30,962 nucleotides of DNA from a virus, in the UHGV virus genome UHGV-1558343; one strand, given 5' to 3'. Both the position numbers and the translations under genes were made by a program. The notes below the pieces were generated by a model. It saw nothing but the letters and a program-made list of their open reading frames with translations, had not been told where the DNA came from and did not search any database. Positions 3,066 through 15,066 of the stretch are shown here, piece by piece. Position 1 is the stretch's first letter. Each line of letters opens with the position of its first letter.

Positions 3066-3398
3066 CTATTTGTTTAAATCTACAGAGACTGAAGAGATAA
3101 CATAGATACCTTCTTCAGCAAAGAATTGAGGTTTACTAAGAGCACCAGTTGCCACGCATTTATCGTTAGCATCCCACAAGCTATAGTGTGAGACCGTTGC
3201 AGAAGCTGGAACAGTAATATTAACTGTATCTTCTGAGGCAATTAAGCCATTATCCGGTTCAGAAAAATAAATAGCCACTGGCTTAGTAACCTTATTTGCT
3301 GTAGGGTCTGCCGTTGGGTCTACATTGTGTAAAATAATAGTCTTTGGGGTTAGCGTGGCGAGGATTTTATTCTTACCATCAATAGTTAATGTTCCCAT
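3066..3398 (-). CDS. hypothetical protein
   Basis: 110 aa ORF; stop/start overlap (TAATG) with upstream gene indicates translational coupling. Confidence 0.5.
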   Translation of the reverse strand: MGTLTIDGKNKILATLTPKTIILHNVDPTADPTANKVTKPVAIYFSEPDNGLIASEDTVNITVPASATVSHYSLWDANDKCVATGALSKPQFFAEEGIYVISSVSVDLNK

Positions 3399-7003: not shown

Positions 7004-7204
7004 TTATTCAGAGTCTGTAGCAGTCTCTTCTTTCTTAACTTCGAACTTTGCATCAACAGCATCAAGAAGTGCATCCATAGATGCTTCTTTAATATCAATA
7101 CCTGTTGCTACAGATAATCTATCTGCAATTGCCATGATAGTATTCTGCATAAACTCTAACTTCTTGTTAGCTTCATAAAGTTCTTTATAAACGTTCTCGC
7201 TCAT
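7004..7204 (-). CDS. hypothetical small protein upstream of terminase (packaging accessory or small terminase candidate)
   Basis: 66 aa ORF immediately upstream of the terminase large subunit gene; no recognisable motif. Confidence 0.4.
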   Translation of the reverse strand: MSENVYKELYEANKKLEFMQNTIMAIADRLSVATGIDIKEASMDALLDAVDAKFEVKKEETATDSE

Positions 7205-7320
7205 TATGTTTTCTCCAAATAATTAATCTTGTTTCTCCCTTAAAAAAGACGGCACAGAGACCGTCAAGGAGAAACCACAATGTACGTCAGAGACATACTG
7301 TATAAGTCTTCCTATAAAGT

Positions 7321-7390
7321 ATAACTCTGTAAAAAAGCCCTGTCTAAAAATACTCTTCGGTAGCGAAAGGAAGAATACTTATAGCAGGGC
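7321..7390 (-). terminator. long imperfect hairpin followed by U-run on minus strand, downstream of the tRNA array
   Basis: GCCCTG ... CAGGGC arms (7337-7390) enclosing further pairing; minus-strand transcript continues TTTTTTACAG. Confidence 0.5.
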
Positions 7391-7427
7391 ATTATTATTA
7401 TTTTAATTGAGAGAGAGTAAAATAACT

Positions 7428-7601: not shown

Positions 7602-8336
7602 TTATTTCTGTAATGCGCTCTTCATTTCTGGTGTTGCAATAGTGTCAATCACACCAGTTTTACAAGCATCATCAAACCAGTCTGGTAAGATACCTGCTAA
7701 GAACCCATTGATATTCGTTTTAAGGTACTCTGCAATAAGGGCAGCTTCTTCTTCAATCATCTGCACAACTTCATCTGCATAAGCTGTAATCTTCGAAATA
7801 CCTTCATTAATCTTACTAACAGCTTGGTTAGCTAAATCAGAAATAGTATCAAGACCTTTGTCAATAGCATCTTGTAAGTCACTTAATACATCATTAACAC
7901 CATCTAGTGCGCTGTTAATCGTATCCATAGCTTTTTGACCATACTCTGTAGCAACACCCATAATACCACTAAATGGTGTACAGCCAACTTGCTCCCCTGC
8001 TGCACCCATAACATTAGAATAGCCTTTTGCTACCTGCATACGTGAGGAAAACTCATCAATGGACTTTTGACCATAATCTGTCAGTGTCTTAGTAGTTGAT
8101 GTAGTGCTTGTCAGACTCGTTGTAAAGCTGTTAAGCAGAACTGTTGTAAGTCCAGCAGCAACAAGTTTATCTTTTATTGTAGGGTCTGTTACAGAACTAA
8201 TAGAGCTTACAAGTGATGTAGAGGCAGATACGGTTCCACCGAGAACTGCTGCACCAGTAATAAGTGGGTTAGAAAACCCTTTACCGGTTTTTAAGAGATT
8301 AAAAATCTCCTTACCTTGTTCTGTCATCTCTTTCAT
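7602..8336 (-). CDS. hypothetical Ser/Thr-rich protein embedded in tRNA array
   Basis: ORF 7602..8399 in track; first about 20 codons overlap tRNA-Phe on the same strand, so an internal Met start is likelier; exact start uncertain. Confidence 0.45.
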   Translation of the reverse strand: MKEMTEQGKEIFNLLKTGKGFSNPLITGAAVLGGTVSASTSLVSSISSVTDPTIKDKLVAAGLTTVLLNSFTTSLTSTTSTTKTLTDYGQKSIDEFSSRMQVAKGYSNVMGAAGEQVGCTPFSGIMGVATEYGQKAMDTINSALDGVNDVLSDLQDAIDKGLDTISDLANQAVSKINEGISKITAYADEVVQMIEEEAALIAEYLKTNINGFLAGILPDWFDDACKTGVIDTIATPEMKSALQK

Positions 8337-9441: not shown

Positions 9442-9540
9442 CTTACCTACGAGAACACCATACAGTTTTTCACAAACTTTGTTTTTACGTCTGTTTAGAT
9501 ATGAAGCTCTAAACTTTTTTGCGATGGACTTATTACTCAT
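9432..9540 (-). CDS. possible small basic protein (35 aa)
   Basis: ATG at 9538-9540 with AGGAG SD; translates MSNKSIAKKFRASYLNRRKNKVCEKLYGVLVGKQD; 3' end overlaps tRNA-Arg by about 10 nt. Confidence 0.3.
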
Positions 9541-9556
9541 AGTGCTCTCCTAAAAT

Positions 9557-9710: not shown

Positions 9711-9805
9711 GTGAAAGAGGTCTGAAGTTGTGCCGCTAACTCAACTCCGTGGAATTTGTTACGGTCTTCAGTTGACACCAGCGGTCTTTCACTTGACCTC
9801 TGAAT

Positions 9806-9882
9806 TGGTGCTGCTCACAGGACTCGAACCTGCATTTCCATCCTTACAAGGGATGTGTAATAGCCAATTATACGAAAGCAGC
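9806..9882 (-). tRNA. tRNA-Thr(UGU)
   Basis: anticodon stem CATCC/GGATG perfect, loop CUUGUAA; T-loop TTCGAGT; CCA encoded. Confidence 0.8.
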
Positions 9883-10212: not shown

Positions 10213-10293
10213 ATTAAATCTTTTTAGAGAACTTCTAAGAACCTAAGCAACAAGGTTCCACAACAAGCTGTAATAACCTTAGAAGCCCTCTAA

Positions 10294-10313
10294 AAAGACC
10301 TAAAAAGGTCTTT
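10294..10313. other. AT-rich hairpin inside a 258-nt tRNA-free spacer
   Basis: AAAGACC-TAAAAA-GGTCTTT palindrome; spacer 10213-10470 has no T-loop motif but several other inverted repeats. Confidence 0.4.
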
Positions 10314-10470
10314 GCATAGTCTTGTTTAATCCGGTGACTAGAACCTTTGGAGAGCTTGATACTATCTCTTCTCCGTGACACCTACTAGGTGCTTTATAGT
10401 CGTGCCGTGTACGCCAATACACGAGTAAAAACCGAGCTTGTTAGACGAGCGCGGGAATTAAATCTTATTA

Positions 10471-11128: not shown

Positions 11129-11204
11129 TGGTACTGTGAGAAGGATTTGAACCTTCTGCCTTTCGGTTATCAGCCGAATGCACATCCATATGTGCTTTCA
11201 CAGC
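11129..11204 (-). tRNA. tRNA-Ile(GAU)
   Basis: anticodon stem TTCGG/CCGAA perfect, loop CUGAUAA; T-loop TTCAAAT; CCA encoded. Confidence 0.8.
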
Positions 11205-11683
11205 ATTGTTACCCCTTCGTGTACTTCTCTGTGGCAATTTGCACAAAGCAAGACACACTTATCAACTTCAGACTGCATTGTAGCCAGTGAGTAGTGTTTT
11301 TTACTTACTGTGAAGTCTTTTGTCTTAGGGTCTAAGTGGTGAAACTCTAGAGCCTTTGTGCACCTATTGTAACCACAAATTGAACAACAACCACCCTTGT
11401 AATCAACTAAAGCCTTCTTCAGTCTGTCACGAGACTTTTTAACGTGCAGTGATTTGGCTTTGCTTTTTTCATGATGGGTCTTATGTTTTTTCATGACTCC
11501 ACCTGCAATACATTCGTCACAGTATTTTCTCGCTTTTGGCGTTACCTTTCCGCATGAATGGCAAGAGCCTTCCTGACTTCTCTTTGGGTGTTTCTTGTTG
11601 TTCACTTTTGCAGAACAAGAGCGTGAGCAAAATTTTCCACCTTTAACGGCTTCATTTCCGCAACCTTTGTTAGCACAAATCAT
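11198..11683 (-). CDS. HNH homing endonuclease
   Basis: multiple CxxC pairs plus FHHLDP and CANCHREVH motifs near C-terminus; ATG at 11681-11683 with AGGTGA SD; lies between tRNA genes. Confidence 0.85.
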   Translation of the reverse strand: MICANKGCGNEAVKGGKFCSRSCSAKVNNKKHPKRSQEGSCHSCGKVTPKARKYCDECIAGGVMKKHKTHHEKSKAKSLHVKKSRDRLKKALVDYKGGCCSICGYNRCTKALEFHHLDPKTKDFTVSKKHYSLATMQSEVDKCVLLCANCHREVHEGVTML

Positions 11684-11700
11684 AAGTATCACCTATAAAT

Positions 11701-11781: not shown

Positions 11782-11857
11782 TGGTAGAAGTGGAGGGATT
11801 CGAACCCATCGCCTGTCAGATTAAAAGTCTGCCGCATCACCATTCTGCTACACTTCC
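11782..11857 (-). tRNA. tRNA-Lys(UUU)
   Basis: anticodon loop CUUUUAA; T-arm ATGGG/TTCGAAT/CCCTC; CCA encoded. Confidence 0.7.
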
Positions 11858-11863
11858 ATTAAA

Positions 11864-12001
11864 TTATCTTTGTAGATAAGCTACCCAGACTTGCTTAAGG
11901 TCTGTAGCGATGTGTCTTTTCGGGTTAAATCTAGAATCTACCCTTCCACCTTTGTGGTCGCATACTCACAGGTAAGCTTAATAACTTATCTACAAAGATA
12001 A
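11864..12001. repeat. perfect 17-bp inverted repeat flanking about 100 nt of hairpin-rich spacer
   Basis: TTATCTTTGTAGATAAG at 11864-11880 and its exact reverse complement CTTATCTACAAAGATAA at 11985-12001; each arm is itself palindromic. Confidence 0.7.
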
Positions 12002-12052
12002 TTACCAGACCGTTGTTTATCATCTTAAGTGCTACCATTACACCAACTCGAC

Positions 12053-12101
12053 ATCTGCCGAGTGAAGGAATCGAACCTTCGCCTTTTCTTTACCGGAGAA
12101 A
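12053..12101 (-). pseudogene. tRNA 3' fragment (T-arm plus anticodon arm, anticodon GGU Thr-type); 5' half missing
   Basis: T-arm GAAGG/TTCGATT/CCTTC and anticodon arm TTTCT-CCGGUAA-AGAAA present; no sequence downstream pairs with acceptor 3' strand ACTCGGC; no CCA. Confidence 0.45.
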
Positions 12102-12116
12102 TAGATTGTTTAAGTT

Positions 12117-12143
12117 TTGCTGTAAACGGTCTTCTGTAAATTT
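12117..12143. repeat. tRNA-spacer repeat copy 1 (TTGCTGTAAACGGTCTTCTGTAAATTT)
   Basis: 27-bp element identical to copy at 13048-13074; sits where the 5' half of the tRNA fragment would be. Confidence 0.75.
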
Positions 12144-12202
12144 GTTGAGCCAGACCAAGTTTTAAATTTTTCAAAATTAAATTGGCTTGAAATTTTAAGT
12201 AA

Positions 12203-12227
12203 CTTGCTGTATTTGGTCTTCTGCTCC
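12203..12227. repeat. tRNA-spacer repeat, degenerate copy
   Basis: CTTGCTGTATTTGGTCTTCTGCTCC shares the TTGCTGTA..GGTCTTCTG core. Confidence 0.55.
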
Positions 12228-12284
12228 TTTAAAGGATACTCGTAAGAACCCTTTAATGGAGGGGCTAAATAGCCCTCTCAAAAT

Positions 12285-12364: not shown

Positions 12365-12793
12365 TCATGTACCATTTCTTAGATACTTCTTCCTACGTCT
12401 TTCTGGACTATAGTTTCTTCTACTCTCAGCATTCTTAGCCAGCCTACACTCATCGCATCTACAGCCTTTAAAATAGCTATACGCAGTTCCGTGTTTAATT
12501 GTTTTATGTTTTCTTTCACTTATCTGTGCTGGTCTTGCTGCTTTCATGTTACATTTAAGATGACTATAAGAAATATTATCTAGTGAAAAGAAAAGCTCTT
12601 TTGCATTCTCACTATGTCTCCACGGAATCTTATGCTCGATAGAGAAATCATCCCTAGTCATTTCTTTTCCGCACTGAAAACATCTATTTTGATTTGTCTT
12701 ACATATAAAATCGAATAGCAAATCTTTTACTAGTCTGTTTTGTGCAGTTCCCAAACTCATACCAAGTTGTGATTTGTATACTTCATCTCTCAT
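12365..12793 (-). CDS. HNH homing endonuclease
   Basis: CFQCG ... EHKIPW ... HLKCN motif set; C-terminal Cys/Arg-rich segment GCRCDECR; ORF track start overlaps tRNA-Tyr so internal ATG at 12791-12793 is proposed. Confidence 0.8.
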   Translation of the reverse strand: MRDEVYKSQLGMSLGTAQNRLVKDLLFDFICKTNQNRCFQCGKEMTRDDFSIEHKIPWRHSENAKELFFSLDNISYSHLKCNMKAARPAQISERKHKTIKHGTAYSYFKGCRCDECRLAKNAESRRNYSPERRRKKYLRNGT

Positions 12794-12815
12794 AACTAAG
12801 TATCTCGCTAAGTGT

Positions 12816-12903
12816 TGGTGTGCCGTGTAGGAGTCGAACCTACCGAGTCTCAATGACAAGGGATTTACAGTCCCCACCGCTACCATCTACGGGATAACGA
12901 CAC
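12816..12903 (-). tRNA. tRNA-Tyr(GUA), class II
   Basis: 88 nt; anticodon loop CUGUAAA; long variable region; acceptor GTGTCGT/ACGGCAC; CCA encoded. Confidence 0.75.
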
Positions 12904-12989: not shown

Positions 12990-13047
12990 ATGTTTAGTAT
13001 TACCAGACCGTATCTTTCAATTTTTTCCGCTAAAAATTTAATAAATA

Positions 13048-13074
13048 TTGCTGTAAACGGTCTTCTGTAAATTT
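13048..13074. repeat. tRNA-spacer repeat copy 2 (TTGCTGTAAACGGTCTTCTGTAAATTT)
   Basis: exact 27-bp duplicate of 12117-12143; abuts the 3' end of the tRNA at 13074. Confidence 0.75.
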
Positions 13075-13150: not shown

Positions 13151-13213
13151 ATTCTTAATGACCAGACCAAATCTCTTCTTTGTCCGATTTACCTTCAGAT
13201 GAATAAGATTAAG

Positions 13214-13240
13214 TTTGCTGTAATTGGTCTTCTGTCAAAA
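13214..13240. repeat. tRNA-spacer repeat, degenerate copy
   Basis: TTTGCTGTAATTGGTCTTCTGTCAAAA directly beside the 3' end of tRNA-Glu. Confidence 0.6.
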
Positions 13241-13403: not shown

Positions 13404-13527
13404 ATAAACTTTTCAAACTCTATGTAACCACTTTAACATTATTTTTTAGTGGTTGTCAAGAACTTTTTTAAAATATTTTTCAGTATCTTAGAAAAGCTCT
13501 CATTTCGTTTCTATGTAGAACATATTA

Positions 13528-13557
13528 AAGGGTATCAAACACATTGTCAATACCCTT
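13528..13557 (-). terminator. hairpin just downstream of the vWA gene stop
   Basis: AAGGGTAT - 14 nt loop - ATACCCTT inverted repeat, 12 nt past the stop codon at 13569. Confidence 0.5.
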
Positions 13558-13568
13558 TTTAAAACTTT

Positions 13569-14984
13569 TTACCAGATGTAACGGTCAATCATTACTGCTT
13601 TGAGCATTACGCTGATTGGGTCAAACTTCTCACCACCAAGCAGAGCTTTTAAAGTGGCTGGAGAGAAACCAGATACCATTGCTACACCGTTATCCTTAAC
13701 AGATACTTCGCAAGTTCCATTACGGTTTGCTAAGTACCAAAATACTAGTTGTGGCATATCATATCCAGCTTTTTTGTACTTACTCTGAATTGCTTCAAAG
13801 TTTGTACGACCGTTAGCCCCATCAACCTGATTGAACTCCATATCGGAGAAGATGATAAGCTTACTTGGCATATCTTTCTGAGTCAAGTTGTTTCTTTTAC
13901 CTGTCTCAAGAATACGGTCAAAAGCCACTTGTAAGTTAGTTGAGCCATATTCAACGTTTCGCATCACCTGACGATGACGGTTTCGTAAATCACCACTCAG
14001 TTCGATGAAGTGAGGGTTTGTTGAATAAACCATCAACTCATTCTTAAAGCAACCTGTATTGCGTTCTGCTACATACAAGGCAAGTGATACACCAATATCA
14101 AGGGCGGTGATTGAGCCAAGATTCACCCAAGACATTGAGCTTGAAACATCAGTCATACACAAGATGTTTTCACCTTCTGCCATCCAGTTTGGTAGTGCTT
14201 TCCACTGCTCATTGGCAACATCTGCATTACCATGCTTAACAGATTTAATCACATCGTATGGGTAAACAGCACCAGCATTAATCTTAGCCTCACCCTTTGA
14301 TAAGGACTCAATGTAAGCTTTGTAGCGTTCTCCATCTTTACGGTTAAACAGTTTTTGGTAACGTGCAGCAGCAAGTGAAGGAATCTTACTGTAGTCAATC
14401 TTACCAAACTCATTAGCAGAGATTTTTTGCTCAACTGTATCAGATAGTGCAGACAACAGTGTGCGGTACTCTTTCTCGCTTAAGTTTGCAAACTTACAGA
14501 AACGTTTTACAAACTGTTTGTGGCGTGGTTTTACTCGTGGCAACCACTTAGCTGCTAAACCTGCTGTTGCAGGGTCTAGTAATGCTGCTTCTAAATGTTT
14601 GAAGGCATCTGTCTCGAAACGAGTACCTACGAAGATTTTGAAGTCATCAAAACGACCAAGTTCTGCAATCTTATCCATAATGCGAAGAACCTGTGTAGGC
14701 TCTAAAACTTTATCTTCAATCGCTTGAAGTAAAACAGTTCTGAAAGCTTTACGCTCACCCATACCTTCTCGTACATCTCGCATGTGAAGCAAAATACGAA
14801 CTGCAACATCAACATCCTCACGCAAAGCTTTGTAGAACAAGTCTGGTAAGATTTCTACATTGCTACGGCTGGAACCAGCAGCTTTGTAAAAGTCCACAAG
14901 AGCAGACATTGATGAAGTATGGTTTACAGCACCATTTTCAGTTCGACCTGCATGAAGGTGCGCATGTTTAAATAATTCGCTCAT
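13569..14984 (-). CDS. von Willebrand factor A (vWA) domain protein with MIDAS motif, DUF2828-like
   Basis: 471 aa; DVSSS (DxSxS) MIDAS motif in C-terminal half; N-terminal GRTENGA motif; largely helical N-terminal region; family assignment from memory. Confidence 0.65.
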   Translation of the reverse strand: MSELFKHAHLHAGRTENGAVNHTSSMSALVDFYKAAGSSRSNVEILPDLFYKALREDVDVAVRILLHMRDVREGMGERKAFRTVLLQAIEDKVLEPTQVLRIMDKIAELGRFDDFKIFVGTRFETDAFKHLEAALLDPATAGLAAKWLPRVKPRHKQFVKRFCKFANLSEKEYRTLLSALSDTVEQKISANEFGKIDYSKIPSLAAARYQKLFNRKDGERYKAYIESLSKGEAKINAGAVYPYDVIKSVKHGNADVANEQWKALPNWMAEGENILCMTDVSSSMSWVNLGSITALDIGVSLALYVAERNTGCFKNELMVYSTNPHFIELSGDLRNRHRQVMRNVEYGSTNLQVAFDRILETGKRNNLTQKDMPSKLIIFSDMEFNQVDGANGRTNFEAIQSKYKKAGYDMPQLVFWYLANRNGTCEVSVKDNGVAMVSGFSPATLKALLGGEKFDPISVMLKAVMIDRYIW

Positions 14985-15066
14985 ATTTTACTCTCTTCTC
15001 TCATTTTGTTTGTTGATGTGACAGACTTTAGAGCAACTTTGTAGAGTCTGTCAACACCTTTTAAAA

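Follow-up and report, generated by a model that had tools for sequence, protein, structure and literature searches.

A conserved, stem-closed structured RNA in the tRNA cluster of a FelixO1-like phage that encodes a Ro60-like protein

The transfer RNA (tRNA) region of a FelixO1-like phage (Ounavirinae, Felixounavirus), represented here by the 30,962 nucleotides (nt) of UHGV virus genome UHGV-1558343 (the window), contains a long inverted repeat that is very probably the closing helix, P1, of a conserved, unannotated structured RNA on the minus strand, designated E3. The fuller proposal is that E3 is a stem-protected RNA whose end is set by an adjoining tRNA gene and that it is associated with a Ro60-like protein encoded on the same strand; a probability of about one-half is assigned to this reading.

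The repeat was first noticed as a 17-mer, TTATCTTTGTAGATAAG, at 11864-11880, with its exact reverse complement at 11985-12001, and both copies were confirmed in the window. The perfect arms are really 19 nt long (11862-11880 and 11985-12003), and they stretch to 22 nt at 95% identity with a single mismatch (11862-11883 and 11982-12003). The spacer, which the initial annotation had put at about 100 nt, is 104 nt between the 17-nt arms and 98 nt between the 22-nt arms, and the inner hairpin reported with it, CAGAC-TTGCTTAAG-GTCTG, was located at 11886-11904. Among inverted repeats with loops of 200 nt or less, this is the longest perfect one in the window, and in 200 dinucleotide-preserving shuffles the longest arm measured 10-16 nt (mode 11) and never exceeded 16. 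Moreover, a 153-nt segment containing the repeat has a folding energy of -48.7 kcal/mol (z = -5.4 on the minus strand and -5.6 on the plus strand), a stability reached by 0/200 shuffles. Since the two z-scores are nearly equal, energy alone cannot pick the strand of E3.

Conservation and covariation across related phages had both been suggested as checks on the repeat. E3 was found in 243 phage records of the genera Felixounavirus, Mooglevirus, and Suspvirus, 228 of them covering at least 80% of the query, so the inverted repeat is kept in related genomes. In all, 26 unique homologues were collected and 25 were aligned, 12 with a type A interior (the window, FelixO1, and most felixounaviruses) and 13 with a type B interior (pSJ21, bumzen, DaR-2019b, and all Mooglevirus and Suspvirus sequences). 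In the 25 aligned sequences, 97.1% of the cells in helices P1, P3, and P4 (Table 1) are paired, versus 25-49% when the partners are slid, and the pairing is kept by compensatory changes. Double-sided changes occur at four pairs, three of the 19 in P1 (U-A <-> C-G with a U.G intermediate, C-G <-> U-A, and C-G <-> G-C) and one in P4 (G-C <-> A-U). In addition, P1 has G.U variants at four further pairs, and one of its base pairs has been gained or lost on both arms together between types A and B. An inner helix of 7 base pairs (bp) specific to type B, P2b, shows compensatory change at 3/7 pairs. The closing helices of P3 are non-homologous between the two types, and its stem varies only by A-U <-> G.U exchange around an island that reads GAUUCUAGAUU in the window and contains the palindrome UCUAGA. 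P1 could also be extended (UUAU/GUAG) at the expense of the base of P4 (CUAC/GUAG); all of the columns concerned are invariant, so the alignment favours neither pairing.

Over the whole structure, 28 G.U cells are found on the minus strand versus a single C.A, so that selection is on the minus-strand RNA and not on the plus strand or a DNA cruciform. A plus-strand RNA was ruled out by the same asymmetry. A coding reading was likewise rejected: the small open reading frames (ORFs) at 11891-12001 (plus) and 11931-12038 (minus) are not preserved, the two types differing by many insertions and deletions (indels). A covariance model of these 25 homologues gives a score of 149 bits for the minus strand of the window. 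With Rfam 15, no family reached its gathering score over 11858-12284 apart from the flanking tRNAs, and at E <= 10 the search returned a partial tRNA match in the neighbouring module Yd and chance-level matches, with none for E3.

Table 1. Features of the tRNA region of the window, and related modules in distant phage contigs
Feature	Position	Strand	Remarks
E3, whole module (~142 nt)	11862-12003	minus	closed by P1; directly after Yd; ends 4 nt before tRNA-Lys(UUU) at 11857
P1, 5' strand	11985-12003	minus	RNA AAUUAUCUUUGUAGAUAAG; right arm of inverted repeat
P1, 3' strand	11862-11880	minus	RNA CUUAUCUACAAAGAUAAUU; left arm of inverted repeat
E3 variable 5' domain	11944-11984	minus	type A in the window; type B elsewhere
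P3 hairpin	11922-11943	minus	GGGU-AGAUU-CUA-GAUUU-A-ACCC, with island AUUCUAGAUU, invariant in 25/25 sequences
P4 hairpin	11881-11907	minus	CUAC-AGAC-CUUAAGCAA-GUCU-GG-GUAG; the CAGAC...GTCTG hairpin of the initial annotation
Spacer, 4 nt	11858-11861	minus	UAAU, from P1 to the RNase P site of tRNA-Lys; invariant
Ya	13159-13237	minus	between tRNA-Glu and tRNA-Met
Yb	13000-13070	minus	between tRNA-Met and tRNA-Asn
Two hairpins between tRNA-Asp and Yc	12229-12279	minus	GAG-AGGGCU-AUUU-AGCCC-CUC and UUAAAGG-(14 nt)-CCUUUAA; conserved
Yc	12147-12226	minus	hairpin module GAGC-AGA-AGACCAA ... UUGGUCU-G-GCUC
Yd	12002-12139	minus	YrlA-type; basal stem UUAC-AGA-AGACCGUU / AACGGUCU-G-GUAA
E3'	10214-10303	minus	shorter paralogue; 26-bp stem UCUUUUUAGAG / CUCUAAAAAGA; ends 1 nt before tRNA-Leu(UAG)
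Ro60-like gene (471 amino acids)	13569-14984	minus	DUF2828 + DUF7788 (TROVE-like ring + vWA domain); close homologue of Bas63 gp130
HNH-type ORF 1	11198-11692	minus	no Pfam family match; FO1a annotates 'HNH endonuclease' (gp43) at the corresponding place
HNH-type ORF 2	12365-12886	minus	Pfam HNH match just under cutoff
Spacer modules of contig L016	8451-8535, 9095-9230, ~7700-7756, ~9800-9863		stem plus UUCAGCAA; one with T arm
T-arm / closed 7-bp / D-arm modules in distant contigs	L034:5872, L053:7445 and 7563, L075:5722, L083:7843, L088:308, L089:1451, L028:2641, L035:10411	strand of the DUF2828 gene	not ARAGORN tRNAs

The window holds 25 tRNA genes, every one on the minus strand, and the repeat lies within the 427-nt spacer that runs from tRNA-Asp (12360->12285) to tRNA-Lys (11857->11782), with 18 further tRNA genes downstream of E3 on the same strand. 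Escherichia phage JohannRWettstein (Bas63) matches the 211 nt around the repeat with 100% identity, and about 180 other felixounaviruses match them with 95-99%. Across the three genera, the length of the spacer is steady (424-450 nt) and its sequence near-invariant, except in the segment enclosed by the repeat. On the minus strand, the spacer consists of successive structured modules: two small hairpins, Yc, Yd, and then E3. In almost all deposited genomes it is unannotated or covered only by spurious 'hypothetical protein' calls, and about 240 of these genomes carry the RNA genes in that state. Between the window and pSJ21 or bumzen, both of type B, the E3 interior is 53% identical, as opposed to 95-97% for the adjoining upstream 284 nt and 97-99% for the Ro60-like proteins compared across E3 types. 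The 5' domain of E3 has therefore been replaced or has diverged very fast, independently of the protein.

The 5' end of E3 (12003) lies 1.57 kb downstream of the stop codon of an ORF that matches Pfam DUF2828 and DUF7788 and PHROG 850 'RNA-binding protein', on the same strand. A sequence search of this ORF against the PDB gave no match, and fold comparison alone matched: for an AlphaFold model with a predicted local distance difference test (pLDDT) of 85.8 and a predicted template modelling score (pTM) of 0.86, the top 11 PDB matches are all Ro60/TROVE proteins, aligned over the full length at E ~1e-8 and template modelling (TM) scores of 0.41-0.63. They include Xenopus and human Ro60, Deinococcus Rsr, and the Ro60 of Thermus phage phiLo, and the ORF at 13569-14984 is accordingly predicted to fold like Ro60 from end to end. 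Other felixounaviruses have it as a 'vWFA protein', with 97-99% identity, and it is homologous to a mycobacteriophage 'Ro-like RNA binding protein' (33% identity, E 7e-76), and the family was found in 710 phage records from many host genera. In Bas63, gp130 has been described as a Ro60-like protein that counters the Ppl defence (10.1101/2024.10.10.617714). With respect to Y RNAs, the same preprint goes only as far as the suggestion that 'some tRNA genes are possibly Y RNAs'. The literature searched on FelixO1 or Felixounavirus in connection with Ro60, TROVE, DUF2828, or the transcriptome yielded only the PhageMaP preprint.

Candidate partners for the protein are found in the spacers themselves. 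Four modules, Ya-Yd, are interleaved with the tRNA genes and have a common base consisting of a 4-bp helix, an AGA/G internal loop, and an 8-bp helix (AGACCNNN/NNNGGUCU) followed by UACAGCAA, giving the consensus NNNC-AGA-AGACCNNN-UACAGCAA ... NNNGGUCU-G-GNNN. The sequence CAGAAGACC occurs four times versus 0.32 expected, in each case on the minus strand inside the cluster and once per module. Within its basal stem, Yd has a V-like hairpin, then a T arm (GAAGG-UUCGAUU-CCUUC), then a closed acceptor-like hairpin of 7 bp, and lastly a D arm (GUGU-AAUGGUA-GCAC). It is thus a circularly permuted tRNA mimic of the kind that defines the YrlA-type bacterial Y RNAs (PMC4201824; 10.1101/312249), and Rfam sees it as a partial tRNA only (22 bits). 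Pairing in its acceptor-like helix is at 99%, three of the pairs are compensatory, and the helix has been swapped wholesale for another complementary strand pair in two IMG/VR contigs (L096 and L115). A closed acceptor stem of 7 bp, the length present in Yd, is also the length that makes the YrlA RNA of M. smegmatis an RNase P substrate. As far as the literature shows, Ya-Yd are previously unmapped and unannotated Y-RNA-like genes, and no description of them was found in the literature searched. A further Y-motif-like match at ~3296-3309 falls inside an ORF and was set aside as a chance occurrence.

E3 itself has a hairpin that is reminiscent of these modules. P4 reads CUAC-AGACC-(C)UU(U/A)AGCAA-(G)GUCUG-G/C-GUAG, and Yb and Yd read UUAC-AGA-AGACCG-UUUACAGCAA ... 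ACGGUCUG-GUAA. When P4 is aligned to the minimal Yb/Yd motif, with the interior of the latter removed, p is ~0.0005 for type B and ~0.005 for type A, the type present in the window. To judge from this resemblance, P4 may be a minimal, probably derived Y module, with the stem AGACC followed by UU.AGCAA ... GGUCUG-GU.

E3 can be compared with the bacterial and phage Y RNAs of the YrlA/YrlB class (Chen et al. 2014, PMC4201824; Wang et al. 2018, 10.1101/312249), which include Yrl1 and Yrl2 of Thermus phage phiLo (PMC12135203). Y RNAs lie within 4 kb of a Ro60 gene on the same strand (Chen et al. 2014, PMC4201824), and E3 lies on the same strand as the Ro60-like gene and within ~4 kb of it. As in Y RNAs, the ends of E3 pair into a long terminal stem (19 perfect pairs, or 22 with one mismatch), a conserved helix resembling a protein site is combined with a variable effector part in a modular fashion, and the locus contains several RNAs.

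The way in which such an RNA could be made and used can be outlined from these features. E3 would most likely be transcribed within the polycistronic tRNA cluster that follows the Ro60-like gene. RNase P cleavage at tRNA-Lys, 4 nt downstream, would make its 3' end in the manner of 'tRNA punctuation', leaving UAAU as a 3' overhang, and its 5' end would come from maturation of the preceding Y-like RNA or from an RNase III cut within P1. P1 would then shield both ends, and P4 would dock E3 on the Ro60-like protein, which would also be the partner of Ya-Yd. The fast-evolving 5' domain, together with P3, could serve as the effector or adaptor part. Y RNA loops tether Ro60 to other factors such as PNPase, and this provides a model for that part of E3.

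Several findings weigh against this reading. Unlike the terminal stem of Y RNAs, P1 is a plain duplex without a bulged Ro-binding helix; it has no AGA/G loop and contains neither GNCGAAN0-1G nor the motif of the present clade, NNNC-AGA-AGACC and then UACAGCAA, which itself differs from GNCGAAN0-1G. The only trace of a Y motif in E3, AGACC-UUAAGCAA-GUCUGG, is truncated and confined to the internal hairpin P4, where both the AGA bulge and the C of CAGCAA are missing. The similarity is modest, and unrelated 29-mers in the window match the Y-motif score of type A P4. E3 also lacks the tRNA-like T / closed-acceptor / D domain, and it is the neighbouring Yd, not E3, that has the full YrlA architecture. 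E3 type and Ro60-like allele are uncoupled, and no co-evolution of the variable domain with the protein was seen. The E3 model found no homologue in 75 distant phage loci encoding DUF2828/Ro60-like proteins. All of the sequences come from one phage subfamily, and because most double-sided changes separate just the two lineages of types A and B, independent covariation events are few. Finally, a natural deletion of ~790 bp in Escherichia phage ESCO49 (OM386663.1) has taken an HNH gene, tRNA-Asp, Yc, and most of Yd and left E3 intact, so E3 does not depend on those two modules; the tRNA-Glu of this phage also carries an internal deletion. Since E3 lacks both the defining motif and the defining domain, it is best regarded as related to the Y RNAs and is not counted as a member.

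A bolder version of the Ro60-associated reading is also conceivable, namely that E3 and its shorter paralogue E3' are long-stem adaptor RNAs of a new class, which take part in phage counter-defence together with the Ro60-like protein and the Y-like RNAs, and this is considered rather unlikely. P1, the P3 loop, and the mini-Y hairpin P4 would in that case dock on common partners, and the two-type cassette of the 5' domain would decide the choice of host RNA, nuclease, or defence component to be engaged or decoyed. If true, the 5' domain of E3 would be an RNA-level arms-race module inside a tRNA operon.

The main rival to a Ro60-associated RNA, doubtful but to be taken seriously, is that E3 is only a processing and insulation element. 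P1 would then be an RNase III site that splits the Y-RNA part of the transcript from tRNA-Lys and blocks exonucleases, and the interior would be functionless. RNase III stalks of this kind flank 16S and 23S ribosomal RNA (rRNA), and the early transcripts of T7 have R sites. In common with these, E3 has complementary sequences that form a duplex of at least ~20 bp around an RNA in a polycistronic transcript. Unlike them, the enclosed RNA is small, and the stalk is a predicted one. P1 is indeed a near-perfect, continuous duplex of 19-22 bp, a size that RNase III accepts, and the E3 interior diverges much faster than the neighbouring Y modules. Moreover, E3' (the third-best match of the E3 model in the window, at 19.8 bits and E ~0.016) has an even longer stem that covaries in relatives and also abuts the 5' end of a tRNA. 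The sequence UCUUUNUAGA / UCUANAAAGA is common to this stem and P1, and such partial sharing suggests sequence-specific recognition of the stalk. If the stalk alone mattered, however, there would be little reason for the interior helices to be kept by the compensatory changes seen in P2b (3/7 pairs) and P4 (one), and an 11-nt loop sequence that is invariant across both types would be unexpected. The two readings are in any case compatible, in that a stalk can release a functional core and P1 may double as one. With regard to E3' itself, its interior, when read on the plus strand, also holds AAGCAACAA, which amounts to a P4-like hairpin facing the other way, and a small hairpin, AAGACC-UUUUUA-GGUCUU, precedes it and overlaps its 5' arm (10297-10316).

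It is also improbable that E3 is what remains of duplicated Y-like or tRNA genes in decay, structured only by ancestry. Phage tRNA clusters do evolve through duplication and decay, P4 resembles a truncated Y module, and close relatives differ by homopolymer indels in the type A interior. Decay would nevertheless be difficult to reconcile with a full-length E3 kept in three genera and ~243 genomes, with changes that are compensatory and G.U-restricted and not random, with a paired indel that preserves P1, and with the survival of E3 in ESCO49 despite the large deletions nearby.

Very little credence is given to a DNA-level element, whether a cruciform or HNH recognition site, the inverted ends of a small mobile insertion, or a segment that can be flipped. 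The initial annotation had named a small structured RNA, a homing-endonuclease site, and the footprint of a mobile insertion as candidates. The first of these stands, given compensatory and G.U changes that preserve pairing on the minus strand only and a position in a minus-strand tRNA/Y-RNA operon, and the other two find no support. Perfect inverted repeats, two HNH genes within 1 kb, and the invariant central palindrome TCTAGA are what a DNA element would offer in its favour. The substitutions, however, act at the RNA level: 28 of them give a G.U pair when the minus strand is read but would give an A.C mismatch in a plus-strand RNA or a DNA cruciform. Moreover, the HNH genes are inserted elsewhere, and bumzen, which lacks both, keeps E3. 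In that phage the tRNAs that flank each HNH ORF are adjacent, and the ORFs are hence mobile and polymorphic. For the ORF at 12365-12886, the first ATG falls inside tRNA-Tyr. As to a mobile or invertible segment, none of the 26 unique sequences had an inverted interior, an empty site, or a target-site duplication; the flanking sequence (..CCATTA / ACCAGA..) is not repeated on the two sides, and every inspected relative has E3 at the same place. A loose scan of IMG/VR for TCTTTGYAG-N95-125-CTRCAAAGA returned ~110 loci, nearly all of them chance matches, with one new true E3 and no dispersed copies, and the window itself holds a single weak paralogue.

Weakest of all is an intrinsic terminator or attenuator controlling read-through into the downstream tRNAs, for which a very stable stem-loop followed by UUUAAU might speak, since a scan found no terminator-like site on the minus strand within 11858-12010, and the A/U-rich stem of 19+ bp encloses a 100-nt interior, lacks a U-tract, and is followed by 18 tRNA genes.

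Among known RNAs, the closest parallels in position are species 1 and species 2 of phage T4 (rnaC and rnaD), small stable RNAs of unknown function in a phage tRNA cluster. At 139 and 119 nt they are similar in size to E3 (~142 nt), and they too lie between tRNA genes on the tRNA strand, adjoin a homing-endonuclease gene, and are presumably freed by tRNA processing. Unlike E3, rnaC ends in a T-arm-like hairpin and has no long closing duplex, and T4 has no Ro60-like gene in this region. They resemble E3 neither in sequence nor in structure: the E3 model gave no match to T4 at rnaC or rnaD, which are positional analogues of E3 and not homologues.

FelixO1-like phages are widely used in typing and therapy, and the RNA partners of their Ro60-like protein had earlier been only guessed at among annotated tRNAs. 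Candidates can now be placed in the unannotated spacers of the tRNA cluster, as four Y-like modules, one of them a full YrlA-type mimic, with a fifth and different RNA, E3, attached. These offer concrete probes and deletion targets for asking what the protein binds and how it defeats host defence. Ro60-Y RNA particles are a conserved means of RNA surveillance, and their role in phages is only now emerging, as in the ribonucleoprotein of phiLo (PMC12135203) and gp130 of Bas63 (10.1101/2024.10.10.617714).

Similar modules also occur well beyond the FelixO1-like phages. In a strict scan of 75 distant phage contigs, about nine had modules composed of a T arm, a closed acceptor, and a D arm on the strand of an adjacent DUF2828 gene, as opposed to 0 in the reversed control, and most of these modules fall outside predicted tRNAs. 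By this evidence, YrlA-type RNAs seem to accompany the divergent DUF2828 Ro60 family widely in uncultured phages. For example, an 88-kb contig (L016, IMGVR_UViG_3300045988_063805) encodes a protein 47% identical to the Ro60-like protein of the window, followed by a 22-tRNA cluster. Because its spacer modules, too, consist of a stem plus UUCAGCAA, the hallmark in common with the window is stem-(A/U)U.CAGCAA and not the YrlA motif GNCGAAN0-1G.

Finally, a number of smaller features of the tRNA cluster can be recorded. The UUAAAGG/CCUUUAA hairpin between tRNA-Asp and Yc shows a G-C <-> A-U compensatory change among relatives, and both hairpins at 12229-12279 may be part of a larger Yc-containing RNA closed by UUGAG/CUCAA. 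Two inter-tRNA spacers, at 9711-9805 and 9443-9556 (minus strand), fold significantly better than shuffles (z ~ -3.7), and the former contains GAAGACCG without the full Y motif. Sigma-70-like matches (TTGACA, with a spacer of 17-18 nt) occur on the minus strand at 13430-13459, 13522-13550, and 15025-15054, just upstream of tRNA-Pro and the Ro60-like gene, and are candidate promoters of a tRNA/Y-RNA transcript. At the other extremity, the last tRNA (tRNA-Cys) is followed downstream by very stable, U-tract-bearing hairpins at 7200-7427 (minus strand, z = -6.1), which probably represent the end of the tRNA operon.

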